Origin: an uncultured Mailhella sp.
GTDB taxonomy: Bacteria; Desulfobacterota; Desulfovibrionia; Desulfovibrionales; Desulfovibrionaceae
Assembly (NCBI RefSeq): GCF_963931295.1
Contig: NZ_OZ007001.1
Span: 1,551,137 to 1,615,136 of the forward strand
DNA length: 64,000 nucleotides
Direction of reading: 5' to 3'
Shown: one piece after another, positions 8,740-24,235 of the stretch
How positions within the stretch are numbered: position 1 is the first letter of the stretch
Layout: every line of letters starts with the position of its first letter
Program-made: the position numbers and the translations under genes
Notes under the pieces: model-generated
What the model was told of the DNA's origin: nothing
What the model saw: the letters and a program-made list of their open reading frames with translations, nothing else
The model's database searches: none

Positions 8740-8850
8740 GCCGCATTCCCCCTTTCCCGTCATTGCGCAACGTGCCCGTTCCCGCTATAACAGGTCAACT
8801 GTCCGACTGCCGACAGCGTTCTTCCTACCTTCTTCCGCCGCGAGTCATCC

Positions 8851-11800
8851 ATGTTCCGAGCCGACCTGCATATCCATTCCCGTTTTTCCCGAGCCACAAG
8901 TTCGCGTCTCACTCTTCCCCATCTGGCGGCATGGGCCGGAGTCAAGGGCATCGACGTGCTGGCCACGGGCGACTTCACGCATCCCGTCTGGCGGCAGGAA
9001 CTGCGCGACGCCCTCGAACTCGACGAAAGCGGCCTCTTCCGCCTGAAAACGCCGCTTTCCCGCGAAGATCTGGCCCGCGAAATTCCCCACCTCGCCGGCA
9101 TGGAACCGCGGGAACCCCGCTTCATGCTGGAGGCGGAAATCAGTTCTATCTACAAGAAGAACGGAGCGGTGCGCAAGATACACAGCCTGGTCTATGTGCC
9201 GGATTTCGAGTCCGCCGACAGGCTCTGCGAAAAGCTGGAAGCCATCGGCAATCTGAAGTCCGACGGGCGTCCCATTCTCGGTCTGGACGTCAAGGATCTG
9301 CTTTCCATAGTGCTGGACATTCCCCGCGCCTACATGATTCCCGCCCACATCTGGACGCCGTGGTTCGCGCTCTTCGGCTCCAAGTCCGGCTTCGACAGTC
9401 TGGACGAATGCTTTGAAGACCTCGCTCCCCATATTTTTGCGGCGGAAACCGGCCTTTCCTCCGACCCGGACATGAACCGCTGCTGGAGCCATCTCGACAG
9501 GCTGCTCATGGTGTCGAGTTCCGACGCGCATTCGGGCGAGAACCTCGCGCGCGAGGCCACGCTCTTTGACGGCGCCATTTCCTACGACGGCATCTTCGAC
9601 GCGCTGCATCAGAAGAGAGGCGACACGACCTACGCCGGAACGCTGGAATTCTTTCCCGAGGAAGGCAAGTACCATCTCGACGGCCATCGCGCCTGCGGCG
9701 TGGTGCTCGAACCTGCGGAATGCATGAAGCTGAACAACATCTGCCCCGTGTGCGGCAAGCCTCTCACCGTGGGCGTGCTGCACCGCGTGCTGGAGCTTGC
9801 CGACCGCACCGAACCGCCCTGCCCGGGCAAGGATTTTCAGTCGCTCATTCCGCTGCCGGAAGTACTCGGCGAAATACTGCACTGCGGCTCGAAGACCCGG
9901 AAGGTGCAGGAAAAATACGCCGACCTGCTGGATCATTTCGGTTCGGAAATGACCATTCTGCAGGACACGCCGGAACACGATCTGCGTCACGCCTGGCCGG
10001 AGCTCGGCGAAGCCGTTTCCCGCATGCGGGCGGGCAAGGTCATCCGCCACGCAGGCTACGACGGCGAATACGGCACCATCCGCCTGTTTGAGGATGAGGA
10101 AAACGCCCCCTCCCTGCTGGAGCGCGTGCCCGCCGCCCGTCGCGCGCCCCTGAAAAAAAGCAGGGCTCAAAAAAAAAATCTGAACGCCGACACGTCGCCG
10201 ACTGACGGCGGAAGCTGCAAAAAAAGCGCCGAAAATCGTCCCGACTTTTCCCCGGAATCCTTCAGTCCCATGCAGCGCAAAGCGCTGGAGGCCGGCCCCG
10301 GCCCCGTGCTGGTGCTGGCGGGCCCGGGCGCGGGCAAGACAAGAACGCTCGTGGGCAGGCTCGTGCGGCTGCTTCGCTCCGGCACTCCGGCTTCGGACAT
10401 CGTGGCCATCACCTTCACGCGCCGCGCGGCCGAAGAAATGCGTTCGCGCCTTGCCGCCGCCATGGACGGCGAAGAAAACGCCCCGCTGCCGGAAGCCGAC
10501 ACCCTGCACGCGCTGGCCCTCAGGCACTGGCCCGGCGAGGCTCCGGTGGTGCTCTCCGAAGAAGGCGCGCGCAAGGCCTTTGCCTCGGCCAATCCCACGC
10601 TCGACAAGAAGGACGCCTCGCGCCTCTACGATCAGCTTGAGCTCGGCCGCGAAACGCTGAACGTTCCGGGCGAACTTGCGCCCCTGGCCGAACGCTACCG
10701 GCAATGGAAAAAAGAAAGGAATCTTGCCGACTACACCGATCTGCCGGAAACGTGGCTTGCCGAACTCAGAAGCCGGAACTACGGCGCGGCCAAGCCCTGG
10801 AAGCACATTCTCGTGGACGAAGTGCAGGATCTCTCGCCGTTGCAGAAGGCGCTCGTGGAAGCGCTGACCCCGGCGGACGGCTCGGGATTCTTCGGCATCG
10901 GCGATCCGGATCAGTCCATCTACGGTTTCCGCGGCGCGGATGCAGGCATTGAAGAATCCCTCCGCGCCCGCTGGCCGCAGCTGTGCGTGCTGGGCCTCAC
11001 CGAGAGTCACCGTTCCGCGGCCGCCATTCTCGCGGCCGGACACGACGCTCTGGCCGGGCACGGCGCCTGCGGGGAGCTCTCCTCCGTCACCGGGACCTCG
11101 GCCACGCTCCAGTGGATGGGCGCGCCGACCGCCGAACGGGAAGCCGCCTGGATTGCCGACCGCATTGCCTACCTCATCGGCGGCACGTCCCATCAGCAGG
11201 CCGACCTGCACGAAACGCTCGCGGGCTGCCATCTCGATTCCGGTTCCTGCAGCCCGGGAGAAATCGCCGTGCTCTGCCGCATCAAGGCGCTCATTCCTCC
11301 CATCCGTGCGGCGCTGGAACGCCGGGGCATTCCCTGCTCCGCGCCCGAAGCCGACGCCTTCTGGACCGACGAGAGCGCCGACGCCCTGCTTCAGGCCGCG
11401 GCGCGCTTCCACCGGCAGGAGGAACACTCCCGCAAGGAAGCCGCCTTTCTCGACGCCGACCGCTTTCCCCTGCTGGCGGCCATGGCTTCCGCCGCGCCGA
11501 CCGATGAAGGACGCAAGGAAGACGTGCTCGACGACGTGCCCGCCGAAACCTGGGCCGAAGGCCCGGACGCCGTGGTGGCCCGCTGCCCCGAGCGTTTTGC
11601 TCCGCTGTTCAGCGACTCTGCGGCGTTCAAGCGCCTCCGCCAGGCCTGGAAGGAACACGGCGGCTGGCCGAAACTTCTGGACTATGTATCGTTCCGGCGG
11701 GAAATCGACATGGTGAAGGGGCAGGCGGAATACGTGCAGCTCATGACCATGCACGCCTCCAAGGGCCTGGAATTCAAAGTCGTGTTCATTCCCGGCGCGG

Positions 11801-12072
11801 AAGACGGCCTGCTGCCCTTCCGCGGCGTGGGCGCGCTGCTCGGCAAAAGCGACGACTTCGCGCCGCCCCCCGTGGAAGAAGAGGAAAGGCTGCTCTACGT
11901 GGGCATCACCCGCGCCTCGGAAGCGGTGTTTCTGTCCTCCGCGGCAAGCCGCACCCTCTACGGGCACAAGCTTGCGCTGCCGCCTTCGCCCCTGCTGCCG
12001 CTCTCGCACTTTCACGCCGTCAGGCTGACGCGCCACACCAAAACCACGGCAAGTCAGCTGAGCCTGTTCTGA
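8851..12072 (+). CDS. Endonuclease Q (PHP)-family domain fused to a UvrD/Rep SF1 helicase
   Basis: N-term DLHIHS, TGD, PAHIWTPW, GLSSD, SDAHS, GKYHLDGHRAC..CPVCG; C-term GPGAGKT (Walker A), DEVQD, GDPDQSIYGFRGA, TMHASKGLEF, LYVGITRA. Confidence 0.88.
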   Translation: MFRADLHIHSRFSRATSSRLTLPHLAAWAGVKGIDVLATGDFTHPVWRQELRDALELDESGLFRLKTPLSREDLAREIPHLAGMEPREPRFMLEAEISSIYKKNGAVRKIHSLVYVPDFESADRLCEKLEAIGNLKSDGRPILGLDVKDLLSIVLDIPRAYMIPAHIWTPWFALFGSKSGFDSLDECFEDLAPHIFAAETGLSSDPDMNRCWSHLDRLLMVSSSDAHSGENLAREATLFDGAISYDGIFDALHQKRGDTTYAGTLEFFPEEGKYHLDGHRACGVVLEPAECMKLNNICPVCGKPLTVGVLHRVLELADRTEPPCPGKDFQSLIPLPEVLGEILHCGSKTRKVQEKYADLLDHFGSEMTILQDTPEHDLRHAWPELGEAVSRMRAGKVIRHAGYDGEYGTIRLFEDEENAPSLLERVPAARRAPLKKSRAQKKNLNADTSPTDGGSCKKSAENRPDFSPESFSPMQRKALEAGPGPVLVLAGPGAGKTRTLVGRLVRLLRSGTPASDIVAITFTRRAAEEMRSRLAAAMDGEENAPLPEADTLHALALRHWPGEAPVVLSEEGARKAFASANPTLDKKDASRLYDQLELGRETLNVPGELAPLAERYRQWKKERNLADYTDLPETWLAELRSRNYGAAKPWKHILVDEVQDLSPLQKALVEALTPADGSGFFGIGDPDQSIYGFRGADAGIEESLRARWPQLCVLGLTESHRSAAAILAAGHDALAGHGACGELSSVTGTSATLQWMGAPTAEREAAWIADRIAYLIGGTSHQQADLHETLAGCHLDSGSCSPGEIAVLCRIKALIPPIRAALERRGIPCSAPEADAFWTDESADALLQAAARFHRQEEHSRKEAAFLDADRFPLLAAMASAAPTDEGRKEDVLDDVPAETWAEGPDAVVARCPERFAPLFSDSAAFKRLRQAWKEHGGWPKLLDYVSFRREIDMVKGQAEYVQLMTMHASKGLEFKVVFIPGAEDGLLPFRGVGALLGKSDDFAPPPVEEEERLLYVGITRASEAVFLSSAASRTLYGHKLALPPSPLLPLSHFHAVRLTRHTKTTASQLSLF

Positions 12073-12116
12073 CGCGCCCCGCGCGCCCGCCTGCGGGCAG
12101 ACTTCCGGCGTCATCG

Positions 12117-12163
12117 AAAAAACAAAGGCCGTTCTCCCCAGGGAAAACGGCCTTTGTTTTTTT
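12117..12163. terminator. Bidirectional intrinsic terminator between the EndoQ-UvrD gene and the GRE operon
   Basis: 17-bp stem AAAAAACAAAGGCCGTT / AACGGCCTTTGTTTTTT. Confidence 0.85.
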
Positions 12164-12174
12164 CGGAATCCGCG

Positions 12175-12969
12175 TCAGGACGCCTGCCCCGACGGCTCCC
12201 GCTTCCTGAACACGATGAGCGGGCAGTTCTGGCAGATGTCCGCCCCAGGGAAGGGGTGGCCCGAACGCGTGATGGACACGCCGCCCGTTTTTTCCACGCG
12301 GTCGGCCATGCGTTCCACCACGGCGCGGATGTGAGAGCCGGGAATCATCACGTTGACTTCCCCGCGCTCCATCTTGCCGGAATTGTAGCTGCCCGCGCAG
12401 GCCAGGGTCAGATTGGCCTGACCGTGAATGCAGCTGAACGCCGTGCCGCCGCACACCGCGGAATTGATGCACAGGGACGGGCGGAAGGGATGCACGCCGG
12501 TAACGGCCATCCAGTCGCCCACAAGATGATACGCCTGCATGTTGTCGCAGCAGAAATGCACGACGTCCGGCATGTTCTTCTGTTCGCGCAAAGGCCGCAT
12601 GACCACGGCCAGCGGCGCTTTTTCCATGCGGGGCTTGCTCTCCACAAAACCGCGCACCTGCGCCTCATCCGTGCCGAAGCGCAGAAGATCGCGCACCACC
12701 GCGTCGCTCACTTCGTCCACGCCGAAGCAGCAGCGGGCGTCGAGACACCAGAGCTTCTTCATCTCCAGAAGCACGGTGCGCCCCTCCATGCGGGCCCCGA
12801 GCTCCGCCTGACAAAACGTCAGCGGCCGCACCGGCTCGCAATATTCGTTCTCCGCCCGAAACTGCTCCACGCTCTTTTCGTCGAACAGAAACGTGATGCC
12901 CACAGGCTCGTGCATGAGGCGAAGAAAACGCATGAGACACTCATGCATGCGCGCGTAATCCATATTCAT
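12175..12969 (-). CDS. DUF169 family Cys-rich protein
   Basis: EPVGI...FCQA...WC...NSAVCGG...LACAGSYNSG.MERGEV..MIP pattern; many Cys; RBS GGAGAG. Confidence 0.7.
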   Translation of the reverse strand: MNMDYARMHECLMRFLRLMHEPVGITFLFDEKSVEQFRAENEYCEPVRPLTFCQAELGARMEGRTVLLEMKKLWCLDARCCFGVDEVSDAVVRDLLRFGTDEAQVRGFVESKPRMEKAPLAVVMRPLREQKNMPDVVHFCCDNMQAYHLVGDWMAVTGVHPFRPSLCINSAVCGGTAFSCIHGQANLTLACAGSYNSGKMERGEVNVMIPGSHIRAVVERMADRVEKTGGVSITRSGHPFPGADICQNCPLIVFRKREPSGQAS

Positions 12970-13143
12970 CTTCTCTCCTCCCGCAGCGCGCCGGATCCCC
13001 GAAGGCCTCCGTCACGCCCTTGCCGTCGTCCGGCCCGTTCACGGCAGAACCCGCCTTCCGGTTTTGCCGGAAAGCGGGCCTCACTTCGCCGCAACGCGTC
13101 TGCAACGCGCTTCGCGGCGCTCTTCAACAGGAACAGTTCCGCA

Positions 13144-13443
13144 TCAGTTGTCGGAATCCAGCGCCTTGACCTCAACCTGCTTTTCTTCGTTGAGCCCAAG
13201 GGAGAACCTGCGGCCGTACCTCAGCAGAAAATCGCCGTCGGCAATGAAGGTGACGTCTTCCACGGTCACGCTTTCATCCTCGTCCTCGTCCTTTTCCTCC
13301 AGAGCGAGCCCCAGAATGATGCGGGAACGGCAGCCGCCTCCCAGCGTGTATTCGCGCAGGCGCACACAGGTTCCTTCATCTTCGTCTTCCAGCATGGAAC
13401 GGAGTTTCGCCAGCATTTCTTCATTGACAGTCACTGTGAACAT
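13144..13443 (-). CDS. HesB/ErpA-like small acidic protein, Cys-containing paralog (GGGC38)
   Basis: 99 aa; VRLREYTLGGGC..IILGLALEE...V..IAD pattern of HesB/IscA-like fold; about 63% identical by hand alignment to the upstream Sec paralog. Confidence 0.75.
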   Translation of the reverse strand: MFTVTVNEEMLAKLRSMLEDEDEGTCVRLREYTLGGGCRSRIILGLALEEKDEDEDESVTVEDVTFIADGDFLLRYGRRFSLGLNEEKQVEVKALDSDN

Positions 13444-13541
13444 GGTCTTCTCCCGTGTTGCGCAGGCACTTCTGCCGACGGTTCCGCCCCGTATCCTGCT
13501 TCCGGGCCTCCCGGAAAACGGATCCTGTCCCGACGCCTTTC

Positions 13542-13835
13542 CTAAGCGTTCAGAGCCGTCAGCACGACCTGCTTCTCTTCATTGAAGCTCAGCTCGTAAG
13601 CCTTGCCGTACTTTGTCAGAAAATCATTGTCTGCGATGAAGGGGACGTCTTCGACGAGAATCTTTTCATCCTCGTCTTCGTCCATTTCGTCCATGCCCAG
13701 ACCGAGCACGATCTTGCAATGTCATCCGCCGCCCACTTTGTATTCGCGCAGACGCACGCAGATTTCCTCATCTTCATCTTCCAGCATGGCGCGAAGCTTT
13801 TCCAGCATTTCGTCGCCTATGGTCACGGTAAACAT
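13542..13835 (-). CDS. HesB/ErpA-like selenoprotein (Sec38, GGGUHC), 97 aa
   Basis: ATG 13835 with CAGGAG RBS. In-frame TGA at 13722-13724 aligns with Cys38 of the paralog, and homology continues for 59 codons to TAG at 13542. SECIS-like hairpin follows the TGA. Confidence 0.85.
13693..13709 (-). promoter_or_regulatory. Bacterial SECIS-like hairpin
   Basis: GUGCUC-[GGUCU]-GGGCAU 6-bp stem, with its G-rich apical loop starting 18 nt after the UGA; absent at the same position in the Cys paralog. Confidence 0.7.
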
Positions 13836-13860
13836 AGCTGCTCCTGTTGATTTTGCGCTG

Positions 13861-14754
13861 TCACACGACAACGGTGGAAAGGCCGTGTCTTCTGAAGCGT
13901 TCCCGAACTTCCCTGAGGGCTTCCGGCGTGTACTGTTCCACCGGCGGCAACGGCTTTCCGAGGGCCTGATACTTGCTTTTTCCAAAGGCATGGCACGGCA
14001 TGATCTCTATTTCGGAACGGCCGTACCTGCCGAAAAACTGCGCCATGGCTTCAAGATTCTCGTCCGAATCGTTGAGGCCCGGCATGAGCGGCATGCGGAT
14101 GCGCACTTCCTTGCCCGACTCCAGCGCCGCGCCCATGTTGCGGAGTATGAGGGCGTTGTCCTGCCCGGTAAGCTCCCGGTGTCTTGCAGGATCCATGTGC
14201 TTGCAGTCGAAAAGGAAAAGATCCGCCAGCTTGAGGGCCTTGTCGAAGCGTTCTTCCGGGCAGAAGCCGCAGGTGTCCACGGTCACGTGCCAGCCCTCAT
14301 AGAGAGAGGCTTCCGCAAGATCGAGAAAAAACTCGCCCGCCGCCGTGGGCTCTCCGCCCCCGAAGGTCACGCCGCCCCCGGAATTTTCATAGAAAAGCGC
14401 GTCCTTGCGCACAACGGCGATCACTTCGTCCACGCTCATGACCCTGCCGCTCATTTCTCTGGCCTTGGTCGGACACGCCGGGGCGCAGGCTCCGCAGGAA
14501 AGGCACTTTTCCCTGTCGAGCAGAGACACGCCGTTTTCCATGCGCACGGCGCCCGCGGGGCAGACCTTTTCGCAGGCTCCGCAGCCCGTGCACAGATCCT
14601 GAAAGAACAGAAGCTGAGGGGCAAAGCTCTGGGATTCGGGATTGCTGCACCAGAGGCAGCGGAGCGGGCAGCCTTTCAGAAACACGGTGGTTCTGATGCC
14701 GGGGCCGTCCTTGGTGGACATGCGCTGAATGTTGTAAACCGTTCCCTTGCTCAT
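13861..14754 (-). CDS. Glycyl-radical enzyme activating enzyme (radical SAM with 2x[4Fe-4S] ferredoxin insert)
   Basis: DGPGIRTTVFLKGCPLRCLWCSNPES; CTGCGACEKVCP and CLSCGACAPACP; GGVTFGGGEP. Confidence 0.95.
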   Translation of the reverse strand: MSKGTVYNIQRMSTKDGPGIRTTVFLKGCPLRCLWCSNPESQSFAPQLLFFQDLCTGCGACEKVCPAGAVRMENGVSLLDREKCLSCGACAPACPTKAREMSGRVMSVDEVIAVVRKDALFYENSGGGVTFGGGEPTAAGEFFLDLAEASLYEGWHVTVDTCGFCPEERFDKALKLADLFLFDCKHMDPARHRELTGQDNALILRNMGAALESGKEVRIRMPLMPGLNDSDENLEAMAQFFGRYGRSEIEIMPCHAFGKSKYQALGKPLPPVEQYTPEALREVRERFRRHGLSTVVV

Positions 14755-14884
14755 GGATCCCCTCCCCGCGGGCGGCCCGTGCCGTTCCGGCGGCCTTCTG
14801 CGGCCCCCGTTTTCCGAAACCCCCGGGCGACCGGTGTTCCGCTCTTATGCGAGGCGGCGGAGCCGGGCCCCGCCGCCGTTCGTT

Positions 14885-17329
14885 TTACTGGGCGTACTCG
14901 GTACGCTTGATTATTTCATTCTGCACGCCGCGGTCGAGGCGGGTGAAGTAGGCGCTGAATCCGGCCACGCGGACCACGAGATCCTTGTAGTCCTGCGGAT
15001 GATCCTGCGCGTCCTGCAGCGTGGCGGAGCTTACGCAGTTGAACTGAATGTGCGAACCGCCGTAGTCGCAGTAGGTCTTGATGAGCGAAATGAGATTGCG
15101 CGCGCCCTGCGGACCTTCCAGCGCGGAGGGCAGGAACTTCACGTTGAAGTGGTTCGCGCCGTAGCGCACGGTGTCGATGGCTTCCGCACCGGACTTGATG
15201 AGGGCGGTGACGCCTTCATGATCGGTGCCGGGCATGGCGGACACGCTGCCGTCGGTAAGGGCCACGCCTGCCTTGCGGCCCGTGGGCAGAGCGCCCATGA
15301 GCGAGCCGAAGTAGTTGTGGTAGGAGAGCGAGTAGGCGTCCAGAGGCGTTCTGTGGCCGAAGCAGTCCGGGCCGACGGAGCTGTGGATTTCATCCACGTC
15401 GCGGTAGAATCGCTGCACGAATTCTTCCACTTCGGGATAGTCGTTGCCGTGCTTGGGAGCCTCGAAGCACATCTTGCGGATGTCTTCATAGCCTTCAAAG
15501 TTGGCGTTGAGGGCTTCCAGCAGCTGTTCCATGGTGAGCTTCCTGGTGTCGAACACCAGATGCTTGATGGCGAGCAGCGAGTTGGCGGCGTCTATGCCCG
15601 CGGTCATGATGGGGTTCACCTGCGGATACTTGGTGCCGCCGGCTTCTTCGCACATGCCCTTTTCCACGCAGCCTTCGTACATGACCGAGCGGAAAATGCT
15701 CGGCACCACCTGCAGACGGGCCATCTGGCTGAGATCGGAGTGATGGCGGGAAATGGTGAACAGGTGCTTGAGCTGCGCCTTGCAGGCGTCGTACACTTCT
15801 TCAAAGGTCTTGAATTCGCGAGGATCGCCGGTTTCCGCGCCCACCACCTTCTTGGTGGAGGGATCCTTGCCGTTGTGGAGCAGAAGTTCCACGACCTTGG
15901 CGAGGCAGGGCTGGTCTTCCTGCGTGATGAAGCTGCCCATGCCGCAGATGCCCGTGGACACGCAGCCGTAGTTGCCGCAGTTGCGGGCGTCTTCGAGCGT
16001 GATGCCGCCTTCGTACTGAGAGAAGCGGGCGAGATTGCGTTCGATGACCACGGTGTTGTTGAGAATCTGAGGCTGGCCGGAGCCGCCGCGGATGCAGTCC
16101 ACCACCTTGTTCATGTAGGAAGTCTTGAGCTTCGGATGATAGAGCAGGGTCAGCGTGGGCTGAATGCCGCGCATTCTGATCTGGGTTTCCAGCAGCAGTT
16201 CTTCCAGTTCGGTGCTGGCGTCGCGGCCGTAGGCGTCCACGCCGCCGATGGTGATGGTCTGGCCGGTGTGGCCGGAAAGCGTCTTGGCGTAGGAGCCGCC
16301 CTGGTATTCGCCGAGTTCCATGTGCTTGATCCACTGGAACTTCAGCAGGGTGATGACCTGTTCGCGGGTCAGCTTTCCTTCGTCGATGTCCTTCTTGTAG
16401 AAGGGATACATGTACTGACCATAACGGCCGGGGGAGGTGGCGCAGGCCATCTGTTCCACTTCGATGGCGAGGTGAATGAACCAGAAGGACTGGATGGCTT
16501 CACGGAAGTTGCGGGCGGGATATTCGGGCACGCGACGGCAGATTTCCGCGATTTCCAGAAGTTCGGCCTTGTTCTTGGGATCGGTTTCGGCTTCGGCCGT
16601 CTTTTCCGCAAGGTCGGCATAGCGGTGGGAATGGGCAATGACGGCTTCCGTGGCCACGATCATGGCGCGGTAGAGGTCATGCTTTTCCTTGTTTTCCAGC
16701 GTGGTGGGGCAGTCGAGGAGGCGCTTTTTCAGATCGTCCACCACCCAGCGCAGGCCCTTGTTGAGCGCCTTGGGATAGTCGGCGATGCCGGAACCGGAAG
16801 CCACGCTCACGTTGTCGTAGTACATGCCGGCCTTGGAATACTGCGCGGGATTCACACCGTACTTGTCCTTGTACATCTTGTTGTTCAGGGCAATGCAGGT
16901 GCGGTTCTTCCACTTCTTGTACACCTTTTCGAGCAGATCCTGGGTCTCCTGCGGAATCTTCATTTCGCCGAGAGAGGTCATCTTGGCGAGCTGCATTTCG
17001 TCCTTGATCCAGGACACGTTCCATTCAGGATACGGATTCACGCCGCAGCGGATGCCCGTAAGCGTGCCCACGATGGGGTTGCCGTCCAGAAAAATCTTCT
17101 TGGTCAAGAGCACGCGTTCAAACAGTTTCGCCCGGATGTAGAGCGTGGATTCGCCGGCGAATTCATCATACACGTCCAGAAGGCAGCGGAGGCGTTCCGG
17201 ATCCATGACCTGAGGCGCGGTCATCAGGAAGTCCTTCAGCTCCTGAACGCGCTGTTCGGCGGTATCCCAGTTGATGCCGTAGCCCTGCCCTTCCACCGGG
17301 GCAGGCGAGGTGAACTGCATGACAGACAT
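14885..17329 (-). CDS. Glycyl radical enzyme (PFL2-like superfamily), substrate unassigned
   Basis: 814 aa; C-terminal VRVAGFSAYF with Gly790; active-site loop NCGNYGC456VSTG; SPGRYGQY and TIGG motifs. Lacks the adjacent Cys-Cys of true PFL. Confidence 0.93.
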   Translation of the reverse strand: MSVMQFTSPAPVEGQGYGINWDTAEQRVQELKDFLMTAPQVMDPERLRCLLDVYDEFAGESTLYIRAKLFERVLLTKKIFLDGNPIVGTLTGIRCGVNPYPEWNVSWIKDEMQLAKMTSLGEMKIPQETQDLLEKVYKKWKNRTCIALNNKMYKDKYGVNPAQYSKAGMYYDNVSVASGSGIADYPKALNKGLRWVVDDLKKRLLDCPTTLENKEKHDLYRAMIVATEAVIAHSHRYADLAEKTAEAETDPKNKAELLEIAEICRRVPEYPARNFREAIQSFWFIHLAIEVEQMACATSPGRYGQYMYPFYKKDIDEGKLTREQVITLLKFQWIKHMELGEYQGGSYAKTLSGHTGQTITIGGVDAYGRDASTELEELLLETQIRMRGIQPTLTLLYHPKLKTSYMNKVVDCIRGGSGQPQILNNTVVIERNLARFSQYEGGITLEDARNCGNYGCVSTGICGMGSFITQEDQPCLAKVVELLLHNGKDPSTKKVVGAETGDPREFKTFEEVYDACKAQLKHLFTISRHHSDLSQMARLQVVPSIFRSVMYEGCVEKGMCEEAGGTKYPQVNPIMTAGIDAANSLLAIKHLVFDTRKLTMEQLLEALNANFEGYEDIRKMCFEAPKHGNDYPEVEEFVQRFYRDVDEIHSSVGPDCFGHRTPLDAYSLSYHNYFGSLMGALPTGRKAGVALTDGSVSAMPGTDHEGVTALIKSGAEAIDTVRYGANHFNVKFLPSALEGPQGARNLISLIKTYCDYGGSHIQFNCVSSATLQDAQDHPQDYKDLVVRVAGFSAYFTRLDRGVQNEIIKRTEYAQ

Positions 17330-17395
17330 GAGGGGTCTCCTGTAGGAATGTTTTATGGGGACAGGAAAAAATTGCTTGCTTGTTGCCGTACACTA

Positions 17396-17412
17396 TGCAC
17401 AAAGCGTGCCAA
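17396..17412 (-). promoter_or_regulatory. Sigma-54 (-24/-12) promoter of GRE operon
   Basis: Minus strand TTGGCACGCTTTGTGCA = GG-N10-GC, about 70 bp upstream of the GRE start. Confidence 0.8.
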
Positions 17413-17509
17413 CTTTTTCTCAATGTAAATAATTTATTGAAATATTTAATTTTTATAAAACATGCCGCGCGCAAAATCCGGAATAATCTTTTTTCGGACC
17501 TAAAAAAAC

Positions 17510-17527
17510 TTTCTTTTTAGAAAGAAA
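17510..17527. promoter_or_regulatory. Candidate upstream activator site (TTTCTTT-N4-AAAGAAA)
   Basis: Perfect 7-4-7 palindrome about 110 bp upstream of the -24 element; same arms and spacing at 19603-19620. Confidence 0.6.
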
Positions 17528-17578
17528 TTTTCTATACATGAGAAAAATTTATCAGAGCATTCCAGCAAAGGATTCCGC

Positions 17579-19054
17579 ATGCTCATAGACAGCAAGAACT
17601 TCAGCGACGTCAGCATGAACGACGTGATGACGCCGGCCATGCGGGCCATATGGGATCATATGAGCATAGGCGTGGCCATCGTGGACGGCAAAGGCATCTG
17701 CGTGTACATGAACGAGATTCAGGCGCGCGTGGACGGCTTCACCACGTCCGGCGTGGTGGGCAAGCACATCACGGAACTGTACGTGCCCAACGGCATGGCC
17801 CGCATTCCCACCATGGAATGCCTGTACCGGGGCGAGCCGCTTCTGCGCAAGGCCTACTGGTACAAGACCATCAACAATTCCCTCTTCTCCTCCGTCACGG
17901 ACTTCTATCCGCTGTTCGATCACGGCATGAAGGACGGCGTGCTGGCCTTCACCATCTGGGTGGACAGCGCCCTGCTCACCGGCGAGGCAAAAATGAACAC
18001 CCGCGCGCCGGCCTCAGCCAGCGACAGCACAAGATACACCTTCGAGAGCATCATCGGGCACGATCCGGCCCTGCGCGGAGCCGTCAGCGACGCCAAAGTG
18101 GCCGCCAAGAGCCCGGTTCCGGTCATGATCTGGGGAGAGAACGGCACGGGCAAGGAACTGTTTGCGCAGGCGATTCATGCGGCAAGTCCGCGAAGAAATC
18201 ATCCGTTCATTGCGGTCAACTGCGCGGCCATTCCGGAAAATCTGCTGGAAGGCATACTGTTCGGCACCTCGAAGGGAGCCTACACCGACGCCGCGGACAA
18301 GCCCGGACTTTTTGAAAAGGCCGACGGCGGAACCCTGCTGCTCGACGAACTCAACTCCATGCCTCTGGGCCTTCAGGCCAAGCTGCTGCGCGTGCTTCAG
18401 GAAAAAAGAATACGCCGCCTCGGCGCCAGCTCGGAAAAGGACGTCGACGTCCGGGTCATCAGCATTCTGAACGAGCCCCCGCTCACGGCCGTGAGCCGCG
18501 GCATTCTGCGCAACGACCTTTATTACCGCCTCGCCGTGGTGGGCATTGCCGTGCCGCCGCTTCGGGAACGGTTGGAAGACATTCCGCTGCTCATCGCTTC
18601 GTTTCTTCAGCGCGCCGAAGACGCTCCCGCCGGCGTGCGCGTTTCCGACTCCGTCATGAAGCTGTTCTGGGGCTATTCCTGGCCGGGCAACATCCGCGAG
18701 CTTCTGCACGTCATCGAGGGCAGTCTGGCGCTGCTCGGAAGCCGCAACGTCATTACCGAAGACAGTCTGCCCCGGCAGTTCCGCGAATCCTGCCTCAGCA
18801 GACGCGCCGCCGAAGCCGCGCCTGCGGCCGTGCGGGAAGAGGACCTTCCCCTGCTGGACGACTACCGCAACGTGCGCCGCAACAGCGTGGTTCCTCTTAA
18901 AGAAAAGATCAACGCCTTTGAATCCCGCTGCATCCGCAACGTGCTGCGCGTGACCGGCGGCAACGTGTCCAAGGCCGCAAAAATCATGGAACTCACCGGC
19001 CCCGGACTGCGCTACAAAATGAAGCAGCTCGGCATCACCGAAGAGGATTATTGA
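17579..19054 (+). CDS. Sigma-54-dependent enhancer-binding protein (PAS-AAA+-Fis HTH; RocR-like architecture)
   Basis: GENGTGKELFA, GTSKGAYTDA (GAFTGA variant), LLLDELNSM, LRNDLYYRL, WPGNIREL, C-terminal HTH GNVSKAAKIM. Confidence 0.93.
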   Translation: MLIDSKNFSDVSMNDVMTPAMRAIWDHMSIGVAIVDGKGICVYMNEIQARVDGFTTSGVVGKHITELYVPNGMARIPTMECLYRGEPLLRKAYWYKTINNSLFSSVTDFYPLFDHGMKDGVLAFTIWVDSALLTGEAKMNTRAPASASDSTRYTFESIIGHDPALRGAVSDAKVAAKSPVPVMIWGENGTGKELFAQAIHAASPRRNHPFIAVNCAAIPENLLEGILFGTSKGAYTDAADKPGLFEKADGGTLLLDELNSMPLGLQAKLLRVLQEKRIRRLGASSEKDVDVRVISILNEPPLTAVSRGILRNDLYYRLAVVGIAVPPLRERLEDIPLLIASFLQRAEDAPAGVRVSDSVMKLFWGYSWPGNIRELLHVIEGSLALLGSRNVITEDSLPRQFRESCLSRRAAEAAPAAVREEDLPLLDDYRNVRRNSVVPLKEKINAFESRCIRNVLRVTGGNVSKAAKIMELTGPGLRYKMKQLGITEEDY

Positions 19055-19104
19055 CGAAACATACCGATATCACACAAAATTCACTCGTTTTTCCGACGAT
19101 TCCT

Positions 19105-19140
19105 AAAGGCCGCGCTCCGCAAAAAGTCCGCGGCCTTTTT
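19105..19140 (+). terminator. Terminator after sigma-54 activator
   Basis: AAAGGCCGCG / CGCGGCCTTTTT stem. Confidence 0.7.
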
Positions 19141-19602
19141 GCCGCTCCTGCCGCTGCGTTCAGGCATGACGCCGCCGCTTTTCGTTGCGAAAATCCCCTT
19201 CCGCGCCCTTGCCGCACAAAAGAATAGGGGCGGGCGACACTTCCCGCCGTGCCACGGCTGCGCAGAAAAACCGGGGCCTCGTCGTCCGACGGGCGGCCAG
19301 TCCGATTTCTGCGTCGGACGATGCGCCGCTCAAAAGACCCTGCGCATGTCTTTGCCCTCCGAAATGGCAGGAATTTTCATCCGCAGCGTCAGCATTGCAC
19401 CGACGCTCCGCAGGCGTGGAATTTCGCAGGCGTGCGCCGCGGCTGCGCGCCGAAAACGTCGTTTCGCGCGTCAGACCAGCTCCGCGTCGGCTGGATTCCG
19501 TCTTTCGATATGATATTTTTTGCACAAATTCAGCCGACTTTTCCGCTTCCATCCTCGCCTTTTGTCGCTTTTATTAATTATGATAGCTCTATTTTTCACA
19601 TA

Positions 19603-19620
19603 TTTCTTTCAAAAAAGAAA
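19603..19620. promoter_or_regulatory. Candidate upstream activator site (TTTCTTT-N4-AAAGAAA)
   Basis: Same arms and spacing as 17510-17527; about 125 bp upstream of the permease -24 element. Confidence 0.6.
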
Positions 19621-19735
19621 AAATTTTTTATTTTTTGATTATTTTCTTTTTTAAGATAATGATTTTTATTATCGGTTAAAAAAATTATCTTTTATTTTCA
19701 TGATATTATCTGTATAGTCTCTTTCATTATCGGTT

Positions 19736-19752
19736 TTGGCATGGTTCTTGCT
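19736..19752 (+). promoter_or_regulatory. Sigma-54 (-24/-12) promoter of APC permease
   Basis: TTGGCATGGTTCTTGCT, a near-consensus TGGCAC-N5-TTGC. Confidence 0.85.
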
Positions 19753-19911
19753 TCACGTGACCCATCTCACATTATCTCATTCAAACCCCTTCCCCAAAAG
19801 TTGTTTGCTTGTTGTCGGTCCGCAGTGCCCGAACCTCCCTTTTCGGAGATTCCCCGGGCGAACCTCGCCTGCTTCCGCAGGTTTCCCCTCTTCATTCAGC
19901 AGGAACTCACC

Positions 19912-21411
19912 ATGTCAGAAGCCAAACTTACGAAATCCTTGTCTCCCATGCAGGTTTGCGCGCTCGCGCTAGGTTCCATTGTCGGTTGGGGCTGCTTTGT
20001 TCTTCCCGGCGACATGTTTCTTCCTTCCGCAGGACCTCTCGGCACCCTGCTCGGCTTCCTTGCCGGCGCCATCCTCATTTCCTTTGTGGGTGTGTGCTAC
20101 AGCTACATGGTCAAATACGCCCCCGTGGCCGGCGGCGCATTCACGTATGCCTACATAGGCTTCGGCCCCACCGCCTCGTTCATCTGCGGCTGGGCGCTCG
20201 TCATCGGCTACATCGCCATCGTCATGATCGACATAGCCGCACTCTCGCTCATCTTCCGCTTCCTCTTCCCCGGCGTGTTCGAGTTCGGCGAACTCTACAC
20301 CATCGCAGGATGGAAGGTGTATGTCGGCGAAGTGCTGCTCATGACCGCCGGCACCATCGTCTTCGGCTGGCTCAACTACCGCAGCGTGGGCATGGCCGGC
20401 AAGCTCCAGCTCATCCTCGCCTTCATGCTCACCTTCGGCATCGTGGCCTTCTTCTTCGGCTCCGCCTCCCTGGATTCCGCCGGCATCAGCAACCTCGTGC
20501 CCCTCTTCGCGGAAAACAAGTCCCAGGCCGCCTGCATCATGAGCATCTTCGCCCTCTCGCCCTTCCTCTTCGTCGGCTTCGACACCGTGCCCCAGGCCTC
20601 GGAAGAGTTCGCCTTCGAGCCCAGCCGCTGCCGCAACATCATGGTCGTTTCCATCTTCGTGGGCATGATCCTCTACGCCATGGTCATGCTGGGCGTGGCC
20701 ATCGCCATCCCCTACCCTGAACTCCTCGCCAAGATGGAAGAAATGAGAGCTTCCGGCGGTCATGCCTGGGCGACCGGCTACGTGGCCACCCTCGCCTTCG
20801 GCAAACTCGGCTCCATCATTCTGGCCTGTGCCGTGTTCGGCGCCGTCTGCACCGGCATCAACGGCTTCTTCGTGGCCGCCAGCCGCCTGCTCCTCGCCAT
20901 GTCCAGAGGCCGCATCCTCCCCGAATGGTTCGGACGCATCCATCCCACCTACCATACCCCCTACAACGCCATTCTCTTCACCGCCGTTCTCGCGCTCCTC
21001 ACCCCCTTCGCCGGCCGCTCCGCCGTCGGCTGGACCGTGGACATGAGCTCCGTCGGCACCGGCATCGGCTACCTGTTCACCTGCCTCGTCGCCCGCCGCG
21101 CCATCCTCAACAGCGGCGAAACCCGCGGCAGAAGCATCGGCCTGTTCTGCTGCGTCATGGGCACCATCTGCTCCATCCTGACCCTCATCCTGCTCCTCAC
21201 TCCCGGCTCCCCCGCCTACATCTCCTTCGCACCGCGCTGCGTGCTCGCCGTGTGGGTCATCATGGGATTCGTGTTCTACTTCTCCAACAAGAAAGTCTGG
21301 AGCAATCTCTCCACTGAGGAAATTTCCAGGAACATTCTCGGCGGCACCGACATCCCCATCCTGTTCAACAAGAAAACCGCCCCCTGCACCATCGAACGCG
21401 AAAACGCCTGA
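19912..21411 (+). CDS. APC-family amino acid/polyamine permease
   Basis: ALGSIVGWGCF TM1 motif, PVAGGAFTY, FVGFDTVPQASEE, SRLLLAMSRGRILP..F; CAGGA RBS before ATG 19912. Confidence 0.92.
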   Translation: MSEAKLTKSLSPMQVCALALGSIVGWGCFVLPGDMFLPSAGPLGTLLGFLAGAILISFVGVCYSYMVKYAPVAGGAFTYAYIGFGPTASFICGWALVIGYIAIVMIDIAALSLIFRFLFPGVFEFGELYTIAGWKVYVGEVLLMTAGTIVFGWLNYRSVGMAGKLQLILAFMLTFGIVAFFFGSASLDSAGISNLVPLFAENKSQAACIMSIFALSPFLFVGFDTVPQASEEFAFEPSRCRNIMVVSIFVGMILYAMVMLGVAIAIPYPELLAKMEEMRASGGHAWATGYVATLAFGKLGSIILACAVFGAVCTGINGFFVAASRLLLAMSRGRILPEWFGRIHPTYHTPYNAILFTAVLALLTPFAGRSAVGWTVDMSSVGTGIGYLFTCLVARRAILNSGETRGRSIGLFCCVMGTICSILTLILLLTPGSPAYISFAPRCVLAVWVIMGFVFYFSNKKVWSNLSTEEISRNILGGTDIPILFNKKTAPCTIERENA

Positions 21412-21747
21412 AAACCGCGCTCATAACTGAAGGAACGGGCCACCGGCAAAACCGTCGGCGGCCCGTTCCTCTCCCTCCTGCGCGCCGGAGGCGTCCCCCC
21501 CCTGCCGCCTCCGGCGCCGCCCTGATTTCTTCGCCGCAGCAAGACGCGCCGACCCCCGGCAGCGCGTCTCGCCCCAAAAGGCCGACGCCCTTCCAAGACG
21601 GGCTCAGCGATCCTCCCCGCTCCGACGCGTCACCCTTCTGCGGACTCTCTTCTTCCCTTTCTGAGGCGCAGGTCTGCGCCATCCGGCCCAAAACTCTCCG
21701 AAGCGCTCCATTTCTCCCACCTCGTATCGTCATCAGAGGCTCGTTCC

Positions 21748-22479
21748 ATGGACACCACTTCGCTCATCGTTTTTCTCTGCTGGTTCGCGGGAGGCTTCGT
21801 CTCCGGCCTCACGGGCATAGGCGGAGCCATGGTCGCGGTTCCCGCGGCCGCCCTTGTTCTCCCCATGCACGTGGTCATTCCCCTCAGCTGCATCCTCAAC
21901 GCGGCCATGGACGGGAGTCTGGCCTGCATGCACTTCCGCCACTGCCGCGTCAAAGCCCTCTGGCCTCTGCTGGTGGGCGCGCTGCCCGGATCGTTCGCGG
22001 GACTCTACATTCTTCAGATGGTGTCCGACGCCGTGCTTCAGGGCGCGGTGGGCGTGCTGCTCGTGGTCTATGTGCTCTGGCAGCGCGTGGCCAGGGCCGG
22101 AAGCAGGAAGGAAGATTCCTGGATTCTCGGCGGCACGGCGGGCTTCGGCGCGGGACTTCTCGGCACGGCCATCTCCTTCGACGGCCCGCCCGCCGGAGCC
22201 TACGCGCTCTACCGCGGATGGTCGCCGCGCGAAGTGCTGGGCACGCTCGGCGTCTTCTTTCTCGTGCGCAGTCTGTTTACCTGTCTTCTTCAGGCTCAGG
22301 CCGGATTCTACACGCCGCAGGTTCTCGGCTACGCCATGTACGGCATACCCGCCTGCATGCTCGGCGCCGTGTGCGCCTTTCCGGTGGTAAAGCGCATCCG
22401 CGTGGAACTGTTCCGCCGCGCGCTCATGGCCGTGATCGCTGTTGCCGGCCTCGTCTGCCTGTGGCAGGCCCTGCGCTGA
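21748..22479 (+). CDS. TauE/SafE (sulfite exporter) family membrane protein
   Basis: AGGFVSGLTGIGGAMV and internal repeat GAGLLGTAISFDGPP; about 8 TM. Confidence 0.8.
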   Translation: MDTTSLIVFLCWFAGGFVSGLTGIGGAMVAVPAAALVLPMHVVIPLSCILNAAMDGSLACMHFRHCRVKALWPLLVGALPGSFAGLYILQMVSDAVLQGAVGVLLVVYVLWQRVARAGSRKEDSWILGGTAGFGAGLLGTAISFDGPPAGAYALYRGWSPREVLGTLGVFFLVRSLFTCLLQAQAGFYTPQVLGYAMYGIPACMLGAVCAFPVVKRIRVELFRRALMAVIAVAGLVCLWQALR

Positions 22480-22482
22480 CCG

Positions 22483-23391
22483 CTATTTTGCGGCGGCGTC
22501 GAGCAGCAGTCCGGCAGCGAGCAGCAGACTGAAAATAAGAATGTTGCGCGACGTGAGCCCGAGGCAGCGGTTGAGCGCCCGGCCTTCGTAAATGGAAACA
22601 ATGCGGCTCCACACCCGATAGTGCGGAACAAGGAAGAGCAGCGGCAAAAGTCCCGCCCAGAACAGACCATGCGGAATGAGACACAGCGCAAACGCGCAGG
22701 CGAATCCCCCCTGCGCCAGATAATACCGCAGGCCAAACTCCGCCCCGAAGCGCGCAATGAGCGTCTTCTTGCCGGAAACCTTGTCCTGATCGCGGTCGCG
22801 GAAGTTGTTGATGGTGAGCAGCAGATTGATGCACACGCCCACGGCAAGCCCGGCCAGCGTGGCCTGCGGAGACCATGCGCCGGCCTGCACGTAGTAGGTG
22901 AAGCCCACGGCCACCAGACCGAAGAACACCACCACGAGCACGTCGCCCCAGCCGTGCGCCGCAAGCGGATACGGCCCGGCGGAATACATGTAGGCGCACG
23001 CCAGGCACACCAGCGCCACGGCGGCCATGCTCCAGCCGCCGTACCAGACGAGCGGAAGTCCGGCGCAGAGCGCCAGCGCAAGATCAACGACAATGCCGAT
23101 CTTCATTCTTCGGGGCGATATCCAGCCCTGAGCGCAGGCGCGGCGCGGCCCGAGACGGTCGTCCCTGTCGTTGCCCTGCTCGAAGTCGCACACGTCGTTG
23201 ATGAAGTTCGACGCAATCTGCATGAGCACGGCAAAAAGCACACACAGAAAGGCCGGAACCGGACGAAAACAGCCCGCCCACACGGCAAGGGAACAGCCCA
23301 CGACCACCGGAGCGAGCGCCGCCGCCAGCGTTTTCGGCCGACAGGCCAGTACCCACGCGTACAGAGAATCCTTGCGAACTTCAGTTTCCAT
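22483..23391 (-). CDS. menA: 1,4-dihydroxy-2-naphthoate octaprenyltransferase
   Basis: RPKTL, QIASNFINDVCDFEQGNDRDDRLGP, YSAGPYPL, NNFRDRDQDKVSGKKTL. Confidence 0.9.
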   Translation of the reverse strand: METEVRKDSLYAWVLACRPKTLAAALAPVVVGCSLAVWAGCFRPVPAFLCVLFAVLMQIASNFINDVCDFEQGNDRDDRLGPRRACAQGWISPRRMKIGIVVDLALALCAGLPLVWYGGWSMAAVALVCLACAYMYSAGPYPLAAHGWGDVLVVVFFGLVAVGFTYYVQAGAWSPQATLAGLAVGVCINLLLTINNFRDRDQDKVSGKKTLIARFGAEFGLRYYLAQGGFACAFALCLIPHGLFWAGLLPLLFLVPHYRVWSRIVSIYEGRALNRCLGLTSRNILIFSLLLAAGLLLDAAAK

Positions 23392-23560
23392 TCCTTATGC
23401 TCCCGCGGCCTTGCCGCAAATGTCCGGCTTGACGCCCCTTCCCGGGCGAGGGCAGAATAGCGCATCTTACAGGCAAAGAAAAGAACACTCGCGCCGTGCG
23501 CGAACACGGCGTCTTTTTCCTGCACGCTCAGGCAACCTTCCGTTCGAGGGAGATCCTTCC

Positions 23561-24235
23561 ATGACGGCGACATCCAGCACTCCGGCAGCGCGCGGCAAGG
23601 GCCGCCCCCGCAATTTCGACAGGAACACGGCCCTTCTCAAGGCCCTCGAAGTCTTCTGGCAACGCGGCTACGGCCCGGCTTCCGTTTCCGAGCTGTGCTC
23701 GGCCATGGGCATCAACGCGCCCAGTCTCTACGCCGCGTTCGGAAACAAGTCCGCCCTGTTTCTGGAAGCCGTAACCTATTACGAGCAGCGCTACTGGGCC
23801 GCCCCTTCCCGCAGATTCATGGAGGAAAAGGACTTCTACCGGGCCGTGAACAACTTCTTCATCGAGGCCGCAGGCATTCTGCGCTCCCCCGACACCCCCT
23901 GCGGCTGCATGGTCGTGCTTGCGGCGGTCAACATTTCCGAAAGCGAGCAGAACGTCATACGCACGCTGCGTCAGATGCGCCTCGACACAAAAAACATGTT
24001 CGCCGAAAAAATCCGGCAGGCCGTGCTCGAAGGCCAGCTTCCCGAAGACACGCATGTCGAAGCGCTGGCCGGAGCCTTCAACACCTTTCTTGAAGGCATG
24101 TCCCTCCAGGCCAGGGACGGCCTGAACGCGGAAGAACTCAGCAACGCCGCCTCCTACGCCGTGCGCATGCTGCCCAAGTGGCATAAGCGGCTGAAACCCG
24201 CACCCACGCTCAAACAACTGCCTTCTCATTATTAA
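23561..24235 (+). CDS. TetR/AcrR family transcriptional regulator
   Basis: GRPRNFDRNTALLKALEVFWQRGYGPASVSELCSAMGINAPSLYAAFGNK HTH; PCGC motif in C-terminal domain. Confidence 0.92.
   Translation: MTATSSTPAARGKGRPRNFDRNTALLKALEVFWQRGYGPASVSELCSAMGINAPSLYAAFGNKSALFLEAVTYYEQRYWAAPSRRFMEEKDFYRAVNNFFIEAAGILRSPDTPCGCMVVLAAVNISESEQNVIRTLRQMRLDTKNMFAEKIRQAVLEGQLPEDTHVEALAGAFNTFLEGMSLQARDGLNAEELSNAASYAVRMLPKWHKRLKPAPTLKQLPSHY

Follow-up and report, generated by a model that had tools for sequence, protein, structure and literature searches.

A putatively sigma-54-controlled glycyl radical enzyme of Mailhella with a predicted IscA-fold selenocysteine/cysteine partner protein

A locus of an uncultured Mailhella sp. 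(Desulfovibrionaceae) encodes an oxygen-sensitive glycyl radical enzyme (GRE), its radical SAM activase and two small ErpA-related proteins, referred to here as Erp, one with a predicted selenocysteine (Sec) and the other with a cysteine. It occupies positions 12175 to 22479 of a 64,000-nt stretch of DNA (the window; assembly GCF_963931295.1, contig NZ_OZ007001.1, positions 1,551,137 to 1,615,136) and belongs to a genome that is one 3.17-Mb contig. Among described systems, the GRE eliminases and isomerases (HypD, HpyG/HpzG, CutC, the glycerol and propanediol dehydratases, IslA/HpsG and HplG) have in common with the enzyme of the window the fold typified by pyruvate formate-lyase (PFL), the RVAGFS motif, a single thiyl Cys and a three-cluster activase encoded next to the enzyme. 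However the window's GRE is only about 30% identical to them, has no Glu of the CXE motif, carries a Cys in strand beta1, is devoid of the sulfonate anchors and has an obligate small partner.

In the multisubunit GREs HPAD (gamma), BSS (beta/gamma) and MASS (beta/gamma/delta), the gene of the catalytic subunit is always accompanied by one for a protein of about 10 kDa, as is the case with Erp. The small subunits known so far resemble HiPIP or rubredoxin and have four-Cys metal sites, whereas Erp has the IscA fold and one invariant Cys/Sec, and is often found in tandem. A review of GREs gives small subunits only for HPAD, BSS and MASS and does not mention HesB, IscA or selenium (PMC13450708). 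The HesB-like selenoproteins (TIGR01911/NF038090) and the A-type proteins IscA, SufA and ErpA share the fold of Erp and a Sec/Cys at the position of the first cluster ligand. Nevertheless the Erp motif is GGG-U/C as opposed to the U-x-G-P of the HesB-like selenoproteins (PMC13188914), and Erp differs from both groups by the absence of the C-terminal CxC and by strict linkage to one GRE family. Class III ribonucleotide reductase, with a glycyl radical, more than one active-site Cys and an external reductant, is the model for the relay proposed below. It represents a different branch of the superfamily, however, the window's GRE being unrelated to NrdD beyond the superfamily fold, and a reductive reaction is here a matter of proposal.

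The regulatory arrangement has its closest described parallel in Desulfovibrio vulgaris Hildenborough, where the DVU2275 regulon was predicted as a divergent sigma-54 "PFL"-activase operon with an AT-rich palindrome and DVU2275 was listed with a GAYTDA loop variant (Kazakov et al. 2015, PMC4641369). The likeness was drawn through the loop variant and the architecture, by comparison with the text of that paper, in which the enzyme is named pyruvate formate-lyase and small Sec/Cys proteins go unmentioned; beyond that regulon, the window locus displays an APC permease promoter, TauE and DUF169. DVU2272 is not among the 120 best homologues of the window's GRE, and neither DVU2272 nor DVU2275 is mentioned in a D. 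vulgaris fitness paper. The GRE review, of June 2026, describes no such enzyme or partner (PMC13450708), and a literature search for a GRE with such neighbours yielded no description of this system. Thus an earlier note on this DNA, in which the gene set was said not to be recognised, was right with respect to the enzyme and its partner, but the regulatory module had already been predicted by Kazakov et al. 2015 (PMC4641369). Prior knowledge covers the GRE superfamily, control by sigma-54 and the DVU2275-type regulon; the make-up of the GRE active site, the IscA-fold Sec/Cys partner and an Erp-GRE fusion are new relative to the literature searched. Taken as a whole, the locus is read as an inducible one-enzyme module in which the GRE would use the selenol or thiol of Erp as a bound partner, a picture that is considered to lie just on the probable side.

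The glycyl radical enzyme and its active site

The barrel domain, the RVAGFSAYF sequence with Gly790, a thiyl Cys and a cognate activase place the enzyme in the PFL-like GRE superfamily. Cys456 is the single cysteine of the Cys loop and aligns with the catalytic Cys of HypD, HpyG, HpzG and CutC. The enzyme scores below every NCBIfam equivalog cut-off. The top equivalog score is that of the indoleacetate decarboxylase (IAD) model (492 bits, cut-off 1100), followed by HypD (483, cut-off 1100), HpsG (NF048011; 453, cut-off 1000), CutC (419, cut-off 1050), HPAD (388, cut-off 1150) and, far below, PFL (TIGR01255; 70, cut-off 994). The activase is likewise under every substrate-specific activase cut-off. 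The top PDB match is 418 bits, with about 30% identity and an equal distance from all solved GREs; when the catalytic core is taken alone, HypD, HpzG and HpyG lead the solved structures (191-177 bits). The earlier note had not recognised the gene set as a characterised GRE cluster, and the scores and identities agree: on sequence grounds it is a distinct family outside the characterised isofunctional groups. Carriers of this family are human-gut, rumen and marine Desulfovibrionaceae, and the closest relatives, Mailhella metagenome-assembled genomes, have GREs 94-96% identical to that of the window.

The Cys loop reads GCVSTG here and GCV[S/T/G/A]TG in 120 homologues with at least 56% identity, never with a Glu. 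The C-x-E motif is kept by all eliminases and isomerases, and a C-C pair is found only in PFL and TdcE (PMC13450708). The former is absent from the window's GRE and the 120 homologues, and in place of the adjacent-Cys pair the window's GRE has Gly455-Cys456. Homologues at 44-45% identity carry GCIQT loops. The family also shares a further cysteine, C296, present in 118 of 118 members as part of the motif EQ-MAC(A/G)TSPGR; the HpsG-type paralogues of the same genome have Thr, Ser, Gly or Asn at this position. The alignment pairs C296 with the His of the propanediol dehydratase motif "GHSISPGR", and by its numbering (four residues before PGR) C296 corresponds to HypD Asp278, the catalytic acid/base of the beta1 strand, which is 3.1-3.5 Å from the substrate. 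Thus both acid/base positions of the eliminases appear to be replaced, the Cys-loop Glu by S/T/G/A and the beta1 His/Asp by Cys296, i.e., in one case by a thiol.

Known substrate-binding patterns were also compared. The Arg/Gln/Arg sulfonate anchors common to IslA, IseG and HpsG (PMC13450708) are Ala/Gly/Ala in the corresponding columns of the GRE family and R/Q/R in the genome's HpsG-type paralogues. An IslA-like mode of sulfonate binding was rejected on this ground, a sulfonate substrate as such being still possible. A HypD-like proline pocket is without support, since Tyr450 and Phe340 lack conserved equivalents and the alignment around Ser334 is ambiguous. With respect to the arylacetate decarboxylases (HPAD, IAD and PAD), the GRE scores below the models and has Ser at the second position after the loop Cys, where HPAD and IAD carry Glu and PAD carries Gln; PhdB was compared by its description.

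The Erp proteins and their linkage to the enzyme

In a search of the genome, the Sec-Erp sequence scores 133.9 bits with the NF033940 ErpA_rel model (cut-off 65) with one TGA inside the match. This TGA aligns with Cys38 of the Cys-Erp twin, the invariant Cys, and read-through yields a full-length homologue. The SECIS-like (selenocysteine insertion sequence) hairpin that follows shows a compensatory G-C to A-U change at locus L042, and at L044 an equivalent hairpin is formed from a different sequence. It should be noted that the single-sequence fold alone is not significant (z -0.55), and the weight is carried by the comparison. The genome has the Sec machinery, with selB (349 bits) and selD (298 bits). 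The Sec-Erp gene therefore displays a UGA at the Cys column, a SECIS hairpin and Sec machinery, the features of a bacterial selenoprotein gene, and is predicted to be one. Outside the window, selD (G000:C1:41867-42808) itself holds one in-frame TGA, and selD is thus probably a selenoprotein.

Tandem copies of Erp occur as Sec+Cys (the window and genomes G079, G177 and G016), Sec+Sec (L048) and Cys+Cys (L004), and single copies are also found. A word-based homologue search with Erp reached close relatives only; a full profile search went further, and gave only 138 matches among 1.84 billion representative proteins. Many of these are pieces of 37 aa and roughly 53 aa; dozens of entries of 35-38 aa and 47-56 aa in public collections are the halves of Sec genes cut at the UGA by gene callers. 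The long matches (620-2307 aa, many stretches) resemble acidic low-complexity matches.

The AlphaFold2 model of Cys-Erp (pLDDT 91) matches IscA (1s98/1r94) and SufA (2d2a) in Foldseek with TM 0.64-0.69 and probability 1.0. In a 15-member alignment the invariant residues are M1, R28, G35, C/U38, F66 and G77; Cys26 varies, and the members have no C-terminal CxC like that of cluster-binding A-type carriers. Erp thus has the IscA fold of an A-type carrier but not the three ligand cysteines, of which it keeps one. It does not correspond to the HesB-like selenoproteins either, with 27.8 bits for NF038090 (cut-off 85) and no match to TIGR01911.

Linkage of Erp to this GRE was followed across the phylum. 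ErpA_rel is found in 5 of 401 sampled genomes of the phylum, which are exactly the five that have a GRE at least 55% identical to that of the window, and in none of the other 396; Erp adjoins the GRE in each of the five, and no Erp accompanies GRE homologues at 44-46% identity. In the genome of the window itself ErpA_rel is present at this locus only. The five genomes represent four genera and are therefore not independent events. Erp-GRE adjacency was seen in 27 of the 27 loci examined. The Erp genes stand directly after the activase gene in most loci and after the GRE gene in L020, L021 and L044. In addition there is a natural fusion (P0094, 925 aa; L052 8001-10778 and L053 445-3222), in which an Erp domain is joined by a linker of about 25 aa to a GRE; the gene has its own ribosome-binding site and sigma-54-like promoter and is present in two assemblies. 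The earlier note had taken the pair for HesB-like accessory Fe-S/redox proteins, which does not agree with the loss of two of the three ligand cysteines, the behaviour as an obligate GRE partner and the one fusion. That Erp is an ordinary Fe-S accessory protein appears unlikely.

The fusion gene lies beside genes for two transporters, one GltS-like and one MFS, and for a sigma-54 activator that is unusually long at 1041 aa; no activase is encoded within 8 kb. In Desulfobaculum bizertense (L018, 306-3147) the locus includes a second, very divergent GRE with about 30% identity to the query, which comes with a Cys-form Erp gene of its own as well as a sigma-54-like promoter. Another branch of GREs may thus share the partnership with Erp.

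Regulation, layout and neighbouring genes

Sigma-54 promoters before the GRE and permease genes had been proposed in the earlier note, and both were found at near-consensus. An 18-bp palindrome, TTTCTTT-N4-AAAGAAA, is situated upstream of each, and a pattern search of the whole genome (3.17 Mb) revealed just these two exact copies. With rpoN present in the genome, the locus has the -24 GG/-12 GC promoter, the AAA+ enhancer-binding protein, the upstream palindrome and the sigma factor gene of a sigma-54-dependent operon. The loop of the activator reads GAYTDA in place of GAFTGA, and its gene is divergent from a sigma-54 GRE-activase operon with a palindrome, as in the DVU2275-type architecture. 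The top NCBIfam match of the activator is PrdR (314 bits, under its cut-off).

The arrangement persists in related loci. The activase and activator are nearly always present, a sigma-54 promoter is found 80-150 bp upstream of the GRE gene in 10 of them, and a sigma-54 promoter is kept before the APC gene in L004, L005, L010, L016, L018, L042 and L043. A CTTTC-N6-GAAAG core at about -115 is common to Mailhella and Desulfobaculum. The activator and permease had been assigned to the GRE locus in the earlier note; the shared sigma-54 promoters, the genome-unique palindrome and the synteny across genera all support this assignment. The locus is, by these predictions, a real co-regulated module of catabolic type, expected to be inducible, with two sigma-54 promoters, one predicted to drive GRE-activase-Erp(Sec)-Erp(Cys)(-DUF169) and the other the APC permease gene. 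The features are listed in Table 1.

Table 1. Features of the GRE-Erp locus and their positions in the window
Feature	Position	Strand	Details
Intrinsic terminator closing the GRE operon, after DUF169	12112..12172	-	hairpin -33.7 kcal/mol, z -6.4, then U6
DUF169 protein, 264 aa, Cys-rich	12175..12969	-	PF02596, E 4e-39
Strong hairpin between Cys-Erp and DUF169	13049..13079	-	13-bp stem
Cys-Erp, ErpA-related IscA-fold protein, 99 aa, Cys38	13144..13443	-	NF033940 134.2 bits, cut-off 65
Sec-Erp, 97 aa, predicted Sec38, motif GGG-U-H-C	13542..13835	-	read-through of in-frame TGA 13722-13724
SECIS-like hairpin, apical loop GGUCU, 14 nt after UGA	13692..13710	-	conserved in 9 Sec orthologues
GRE activase, radical SAM, 297 aa	13861..14754	-	CxxxCxxC and two ferredoxin-like motifs; TIGR02494 358 bits, cut-off 174
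GRE, 814 aa	14885..17329	-	PF02901 E 1e-152, PF01228 E 3e-30
GRE Gly790 codon	14960-14962		
GRE thiyl Cys456 codon	15962-15964		Ser458 at the CXE Glu position
GRE Cys296 codon	16442-16444		
Sigma-54 promoter of GRE operon	17396..17411	-	TGGCAC-N5-GTGCA; TGGCACGCTTTGTGC at 17397-17411
Upstream activating palindrome	17510..17527	.	TTTCTTTCTAAAAAGAAA; 116 bp upstream of GRE promoter
Sigma-54 enhancer-binding protein, 491 aa	17579..19054	+	PAS, Sigma54_activat, HTH_8 (Pfam); GAYTDA loop
Upstream activating palindrome, second copy	19603..19620	.	TTTCTTTCAAAAAAGAAA; 134 bp upstream of permease promoter
Sigma-54 promoter of permease gene	19737..19752	+	TGGCAT-N5-TTGCT; TGGCATGGTTCTTGC at 19737-19751
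APC-family permease, 499 aa from ATG 19913	19913..21411	+	PF00324, PF13520
TauE/SafE-family (TSUP) anion transporter, 243 aa	21748..22479	+	PF01925, E 6e-35

Open reading frame and family scans confirmed each gene given in the earlier note, i.e., the GRE, activase, Sec/Cys pair and DUF169 genes with the strong terminator on the minus strand, and the PAS-AAA+-Fis activator, APC permease and TauE genes on the plus strand. The window is about 62% G+C. The permease start is probably the ATG at 19913, served by an AGGA ribosome-binding site, rather than the called start at 19741, since the latter lies within the gene's own promoter. The top NCBIfam match of the permease is BcaP (110 bits, cut-off 690). 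A terminator hairpin follows the activator gene at about 19105-19140. Around the hairpin that separates Cys-Erp from DUF169, the 61-nt stretch 13020-13080 has a folding energy of -35.4 kcal/mol (z -3.9) and a weak U tract after it, and the hairpin itself is a possible attenuator or processing site. Another strong hairpin, of -33 kcal/mol, lies 3′ of the permease gene and separates it from TauE. As strong hairpins follow both the Cys-Erp and the permease genes, DUF169 and TauE may be uncoupled in part from the genes that precede them.

The APC permease and TauE are co-conserved with the GRE in the close clade. TauE is found in 11 of 13 well-flanked loci with a GRE at least 80% identical, in shuffled positions. 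In relatives it is placed under sigma-54: a promoter stands in front of it in L016 and in front of the DUF4125-TauE pairs of L018 and L042, it is inside the GRE operon in L005 and L006, and it is behind the APC gene in L043. TauE is likely a member of the module. In the distant clade (57-73% identity) the transporters are instead BCCT plus EamA, SSF, TRAP, MFS or GltS-like. The import of a compound of amino acid or amine type, as proposed in the earlier note, is thus plausible for the APC clade of the window only, because the wider family as a whole uses transporters of several types (APC, BCCT, SSF, TRAP, MFS, GltS-like).

DUF169, which the earlier note had included in the locus, could not be retained as a core member. 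It follows a strong hairpin and is not conserved at the locus, being adjacent in Mailhella, L015 and L017 only and situated elsewhere in genomes G079, G016 and G354; it is thus regarded as a lineage-specific accessory. DUF169 has no solved relative. A further DUF169 match outside the window (G000:C1:2490830-2491422) contains four TGA and one TAG; it probably represents a copy in decay. Cys-rich or redox proteins recur as neighbours, with DUF169 in the window, C_GCAxxG_C_C at L020 and a CCG/Fer4 protein at L049. DUF4125, absent from the window, adjoins the GRE-Erp genes in six loci of both sub-clades (L017, L018, L042, L044, L048 and L049), sometimes with a TPR protein or DUF4037.

On the left, a 1073-aa open reading frame at 8851-12072 (plus strand) combines a PHP/EndoQ-like N-terminal domain with a UvrD-like helicase and is the neighbour of the locus in all Mailhella relatives, with 85-87% identity; the high-GC antisense frame at 8845-12114 is almost certainly spurious. 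On the right, menA (1,4-dihydroxy-2-naphthoate polyprenyltransferase, minus strand) and a TetR-family regulator gene (22483-24235) flank TauE. Their synteny is seen in Mailhella only and they are probably unrelated to the GRE module.

The host genome has dsrA and no sat (sulfate adenylyltransferase) gene, and Mailhella has been reported to be without sat (PMC13653922). There are six PFL-like GREs, i.e., that of the window and five others, and three pass the HpsG cut-off. The presence of dsrA and the absence of sat mark the host as a Bilophila-like sulfite reducer, and the genome as a whole has the predicted profile of an organosulfonate-dependent sulfite reducer like Bilophila.

Possible chemistry and alternative explanations

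In the proposed scheme, the permease would import a small zwitterionic or acidic compound that would be sensed by the PAS domain of the activator. The activase would install the radical at Gly790, and the Cys456 thiyl radical would then attack the substrate. Rather than carry Fe-S clusters, Erp would be physically bound to the GRE, either as a subunit or as a co-substrate, and a thiol/selenol relay consisting of Cys296 and the Erp Sec/Cys38 would replace the acid/base-assisted 1,2-elimination. The relay may take one of two forms. In the first, the substrate would be cleaved with net reduction and an S-S or Se-S bond would remain, as happens in ribonucleotide reductases; in the second, a fragment would pass to the Erp chalcogen. 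An anionic product would leave the cell through TauE, and the Cys twin could serve as a back-up that needs no selenium or pair with the Sec form in a heterodimer. Redox catalysis is a typical use of Sec. A relay is probable in place of 1,2-elimination because the acid/base residues are lost, an active-site thiol is gained and a one-chalcogen partner is always paired with the enzyme; the specific relay chemistry, net reduction or group transfer by way of C296 and Erp, is tentative and rather doubtful.

Several observations weigh against the reading of the locus as a module with a bound Sec/Cys partner. GRE active sites are buried, and access of a partner Sec to Cys296 is not obviously possible. 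The placement of C296 in the active site comes from alignment rather than from a structure. No conserved reductase that would re-reduce Erp was found at the locus. The Erp-GRE fusion is known from one lineage, and its two assemblies may share one sample. TauE is absent from the 57-73% identity clade and in the window has no sigma-54 promoter of its own, and the transporter families differ across the wider family, so that the substrates may differ as well.

The alternatives concern either the partner or the reaction. It is unlikely that Erp is a dedicated A-type Fe-S carrier that loads the three [4Fe-4S] clusters of the activase, with the GRE a conventional single-subunit lyase or decarboxylase acting on an imported compound of amino-acid type. 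Such a role would fit the IscA/SufA fold, the weak sequence match to ErpA/HI1723 in which the invariant Cys aligns with the first cluster ligand, and the usual position of the Erp genes directly after the activase gene. However the C-terminal CxC is gone, a single Cys/Sec remains invariant, no such carrier accompanies the other five GRE-activase pairs of the genome, and Erp comes after the GRE and not the activase at the loci named above and is fused to the GRE in one lineage. Moreover, Fe-S carriers are not known to have selenocysteine as a ligand. Equally improbable is a role of the GRE as a C-S lyase that cleaves an aminosulfonate (taurine or a relative) with a new binding mode and supplies sulfite to its sulfite-respiring host; the APC permease would then import the zwitterion and TauE would handle sulfite or sulfonate. 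In its favor are the TauE/SafE genes, co-conserved in the close clade and present within sigma-54 operons of relatives, an NMT1/SsuA-type ABC system near a betaproteobacterial locus, and a host that has dsrA, no sat and three HpsG/IslA-type GREs and would thus live on organosulfonates (PMC13653922). This explanation is opposed by the replacement of the sulfonate anchors and the loss of the CXE motif, by the occurrence of the GRE family in loci without TauE and with TRAP, MFS, BCCT or SSF transporters, and by the fact that a sulfite respirer has no evident need for sulfite export.

An organic-acid decarboxylase like PhdB, with Erp as a structural small subunit like HPAD gamma, is very unlikely. 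Its best arguments are that the top equivalog score is for indoleacetate decarboxylase and that PhdB is also without the Cys-loop Glu and has C-x-Q instead (PMC7079210); homologues at 44-45% identity have the GCIQT loop, and small subunits are known in 4-hydroxyphenylacetate decarboxylase. However the IAD score is less than half the cut-off, PhdB was compared by description only, the known small subunits are HiPIP- or rubredoxin-like with four Cys whereas Erp is IscA-like with one Cys/Sec, and a neutral product needs no exporter such as TauE. Slightly less probable still is a pyruvate (2-oxoacid) formate-lyase. The loop G-C-V-S of the GRE resembles the C-C-V-S of PFL, and C296 could in principle stand in for PFL Cys418. 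Enzymes of the DVU2272 type were also labelled PFL by Kazakov et al. 2015 (PMC4641369) and in later proteomics papers. The TIGR01255 score nevertheless falls far short of its cut-off, the Cys-Cys pair of PFL and TdcE (PMC13450708) is absent, and the transporters are of amino-acid or osmolyte types, with no formate channel at the locus.

GREs are the chief means by which anaerobes carry out chemically hard reactions in the gut, such as the conversion of choline to trimethylamine, the metabolism of hydroxyproline, the conversion of sulfonates to H2S and the formation of p-cresol and skatole. To our knowledge, all characterised PFL-like GREs outside PFL and the succinate synthases use the Cys-loop Glu (Gln in PhdB) for acid/base help. 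The apparent replacement of both acid/base positions, together with the strict coupling to an IscA-fold Sec/Cys protein, therefore points to a type of reaction and a type of subunit not yet described. The label "pyruvate formate-lyase" in the D. vulgaris literature probably misleads metabolic models. Direct testing is feasible, since there are cultured carriers, a Cys-only version of the partner and a sigma-54 promoter that may serve as a reporter for substrate screening. If the specific relay chemistry, the more doubtful part of the scheme, proves correct, the enzyme would be the first PFL-like GRE with thiol/selenol-dependent chemistry on a small metabolite, i.e., a relay like that of ribonucleotide reductase or glycine reductase transplanted into a catabolic GRE with an IscA-fold selenoprotein subunit, and it would represent a new respiratory or fermentative electron sink in the sulfate- and sulfite-reducing bacteria of the gut.

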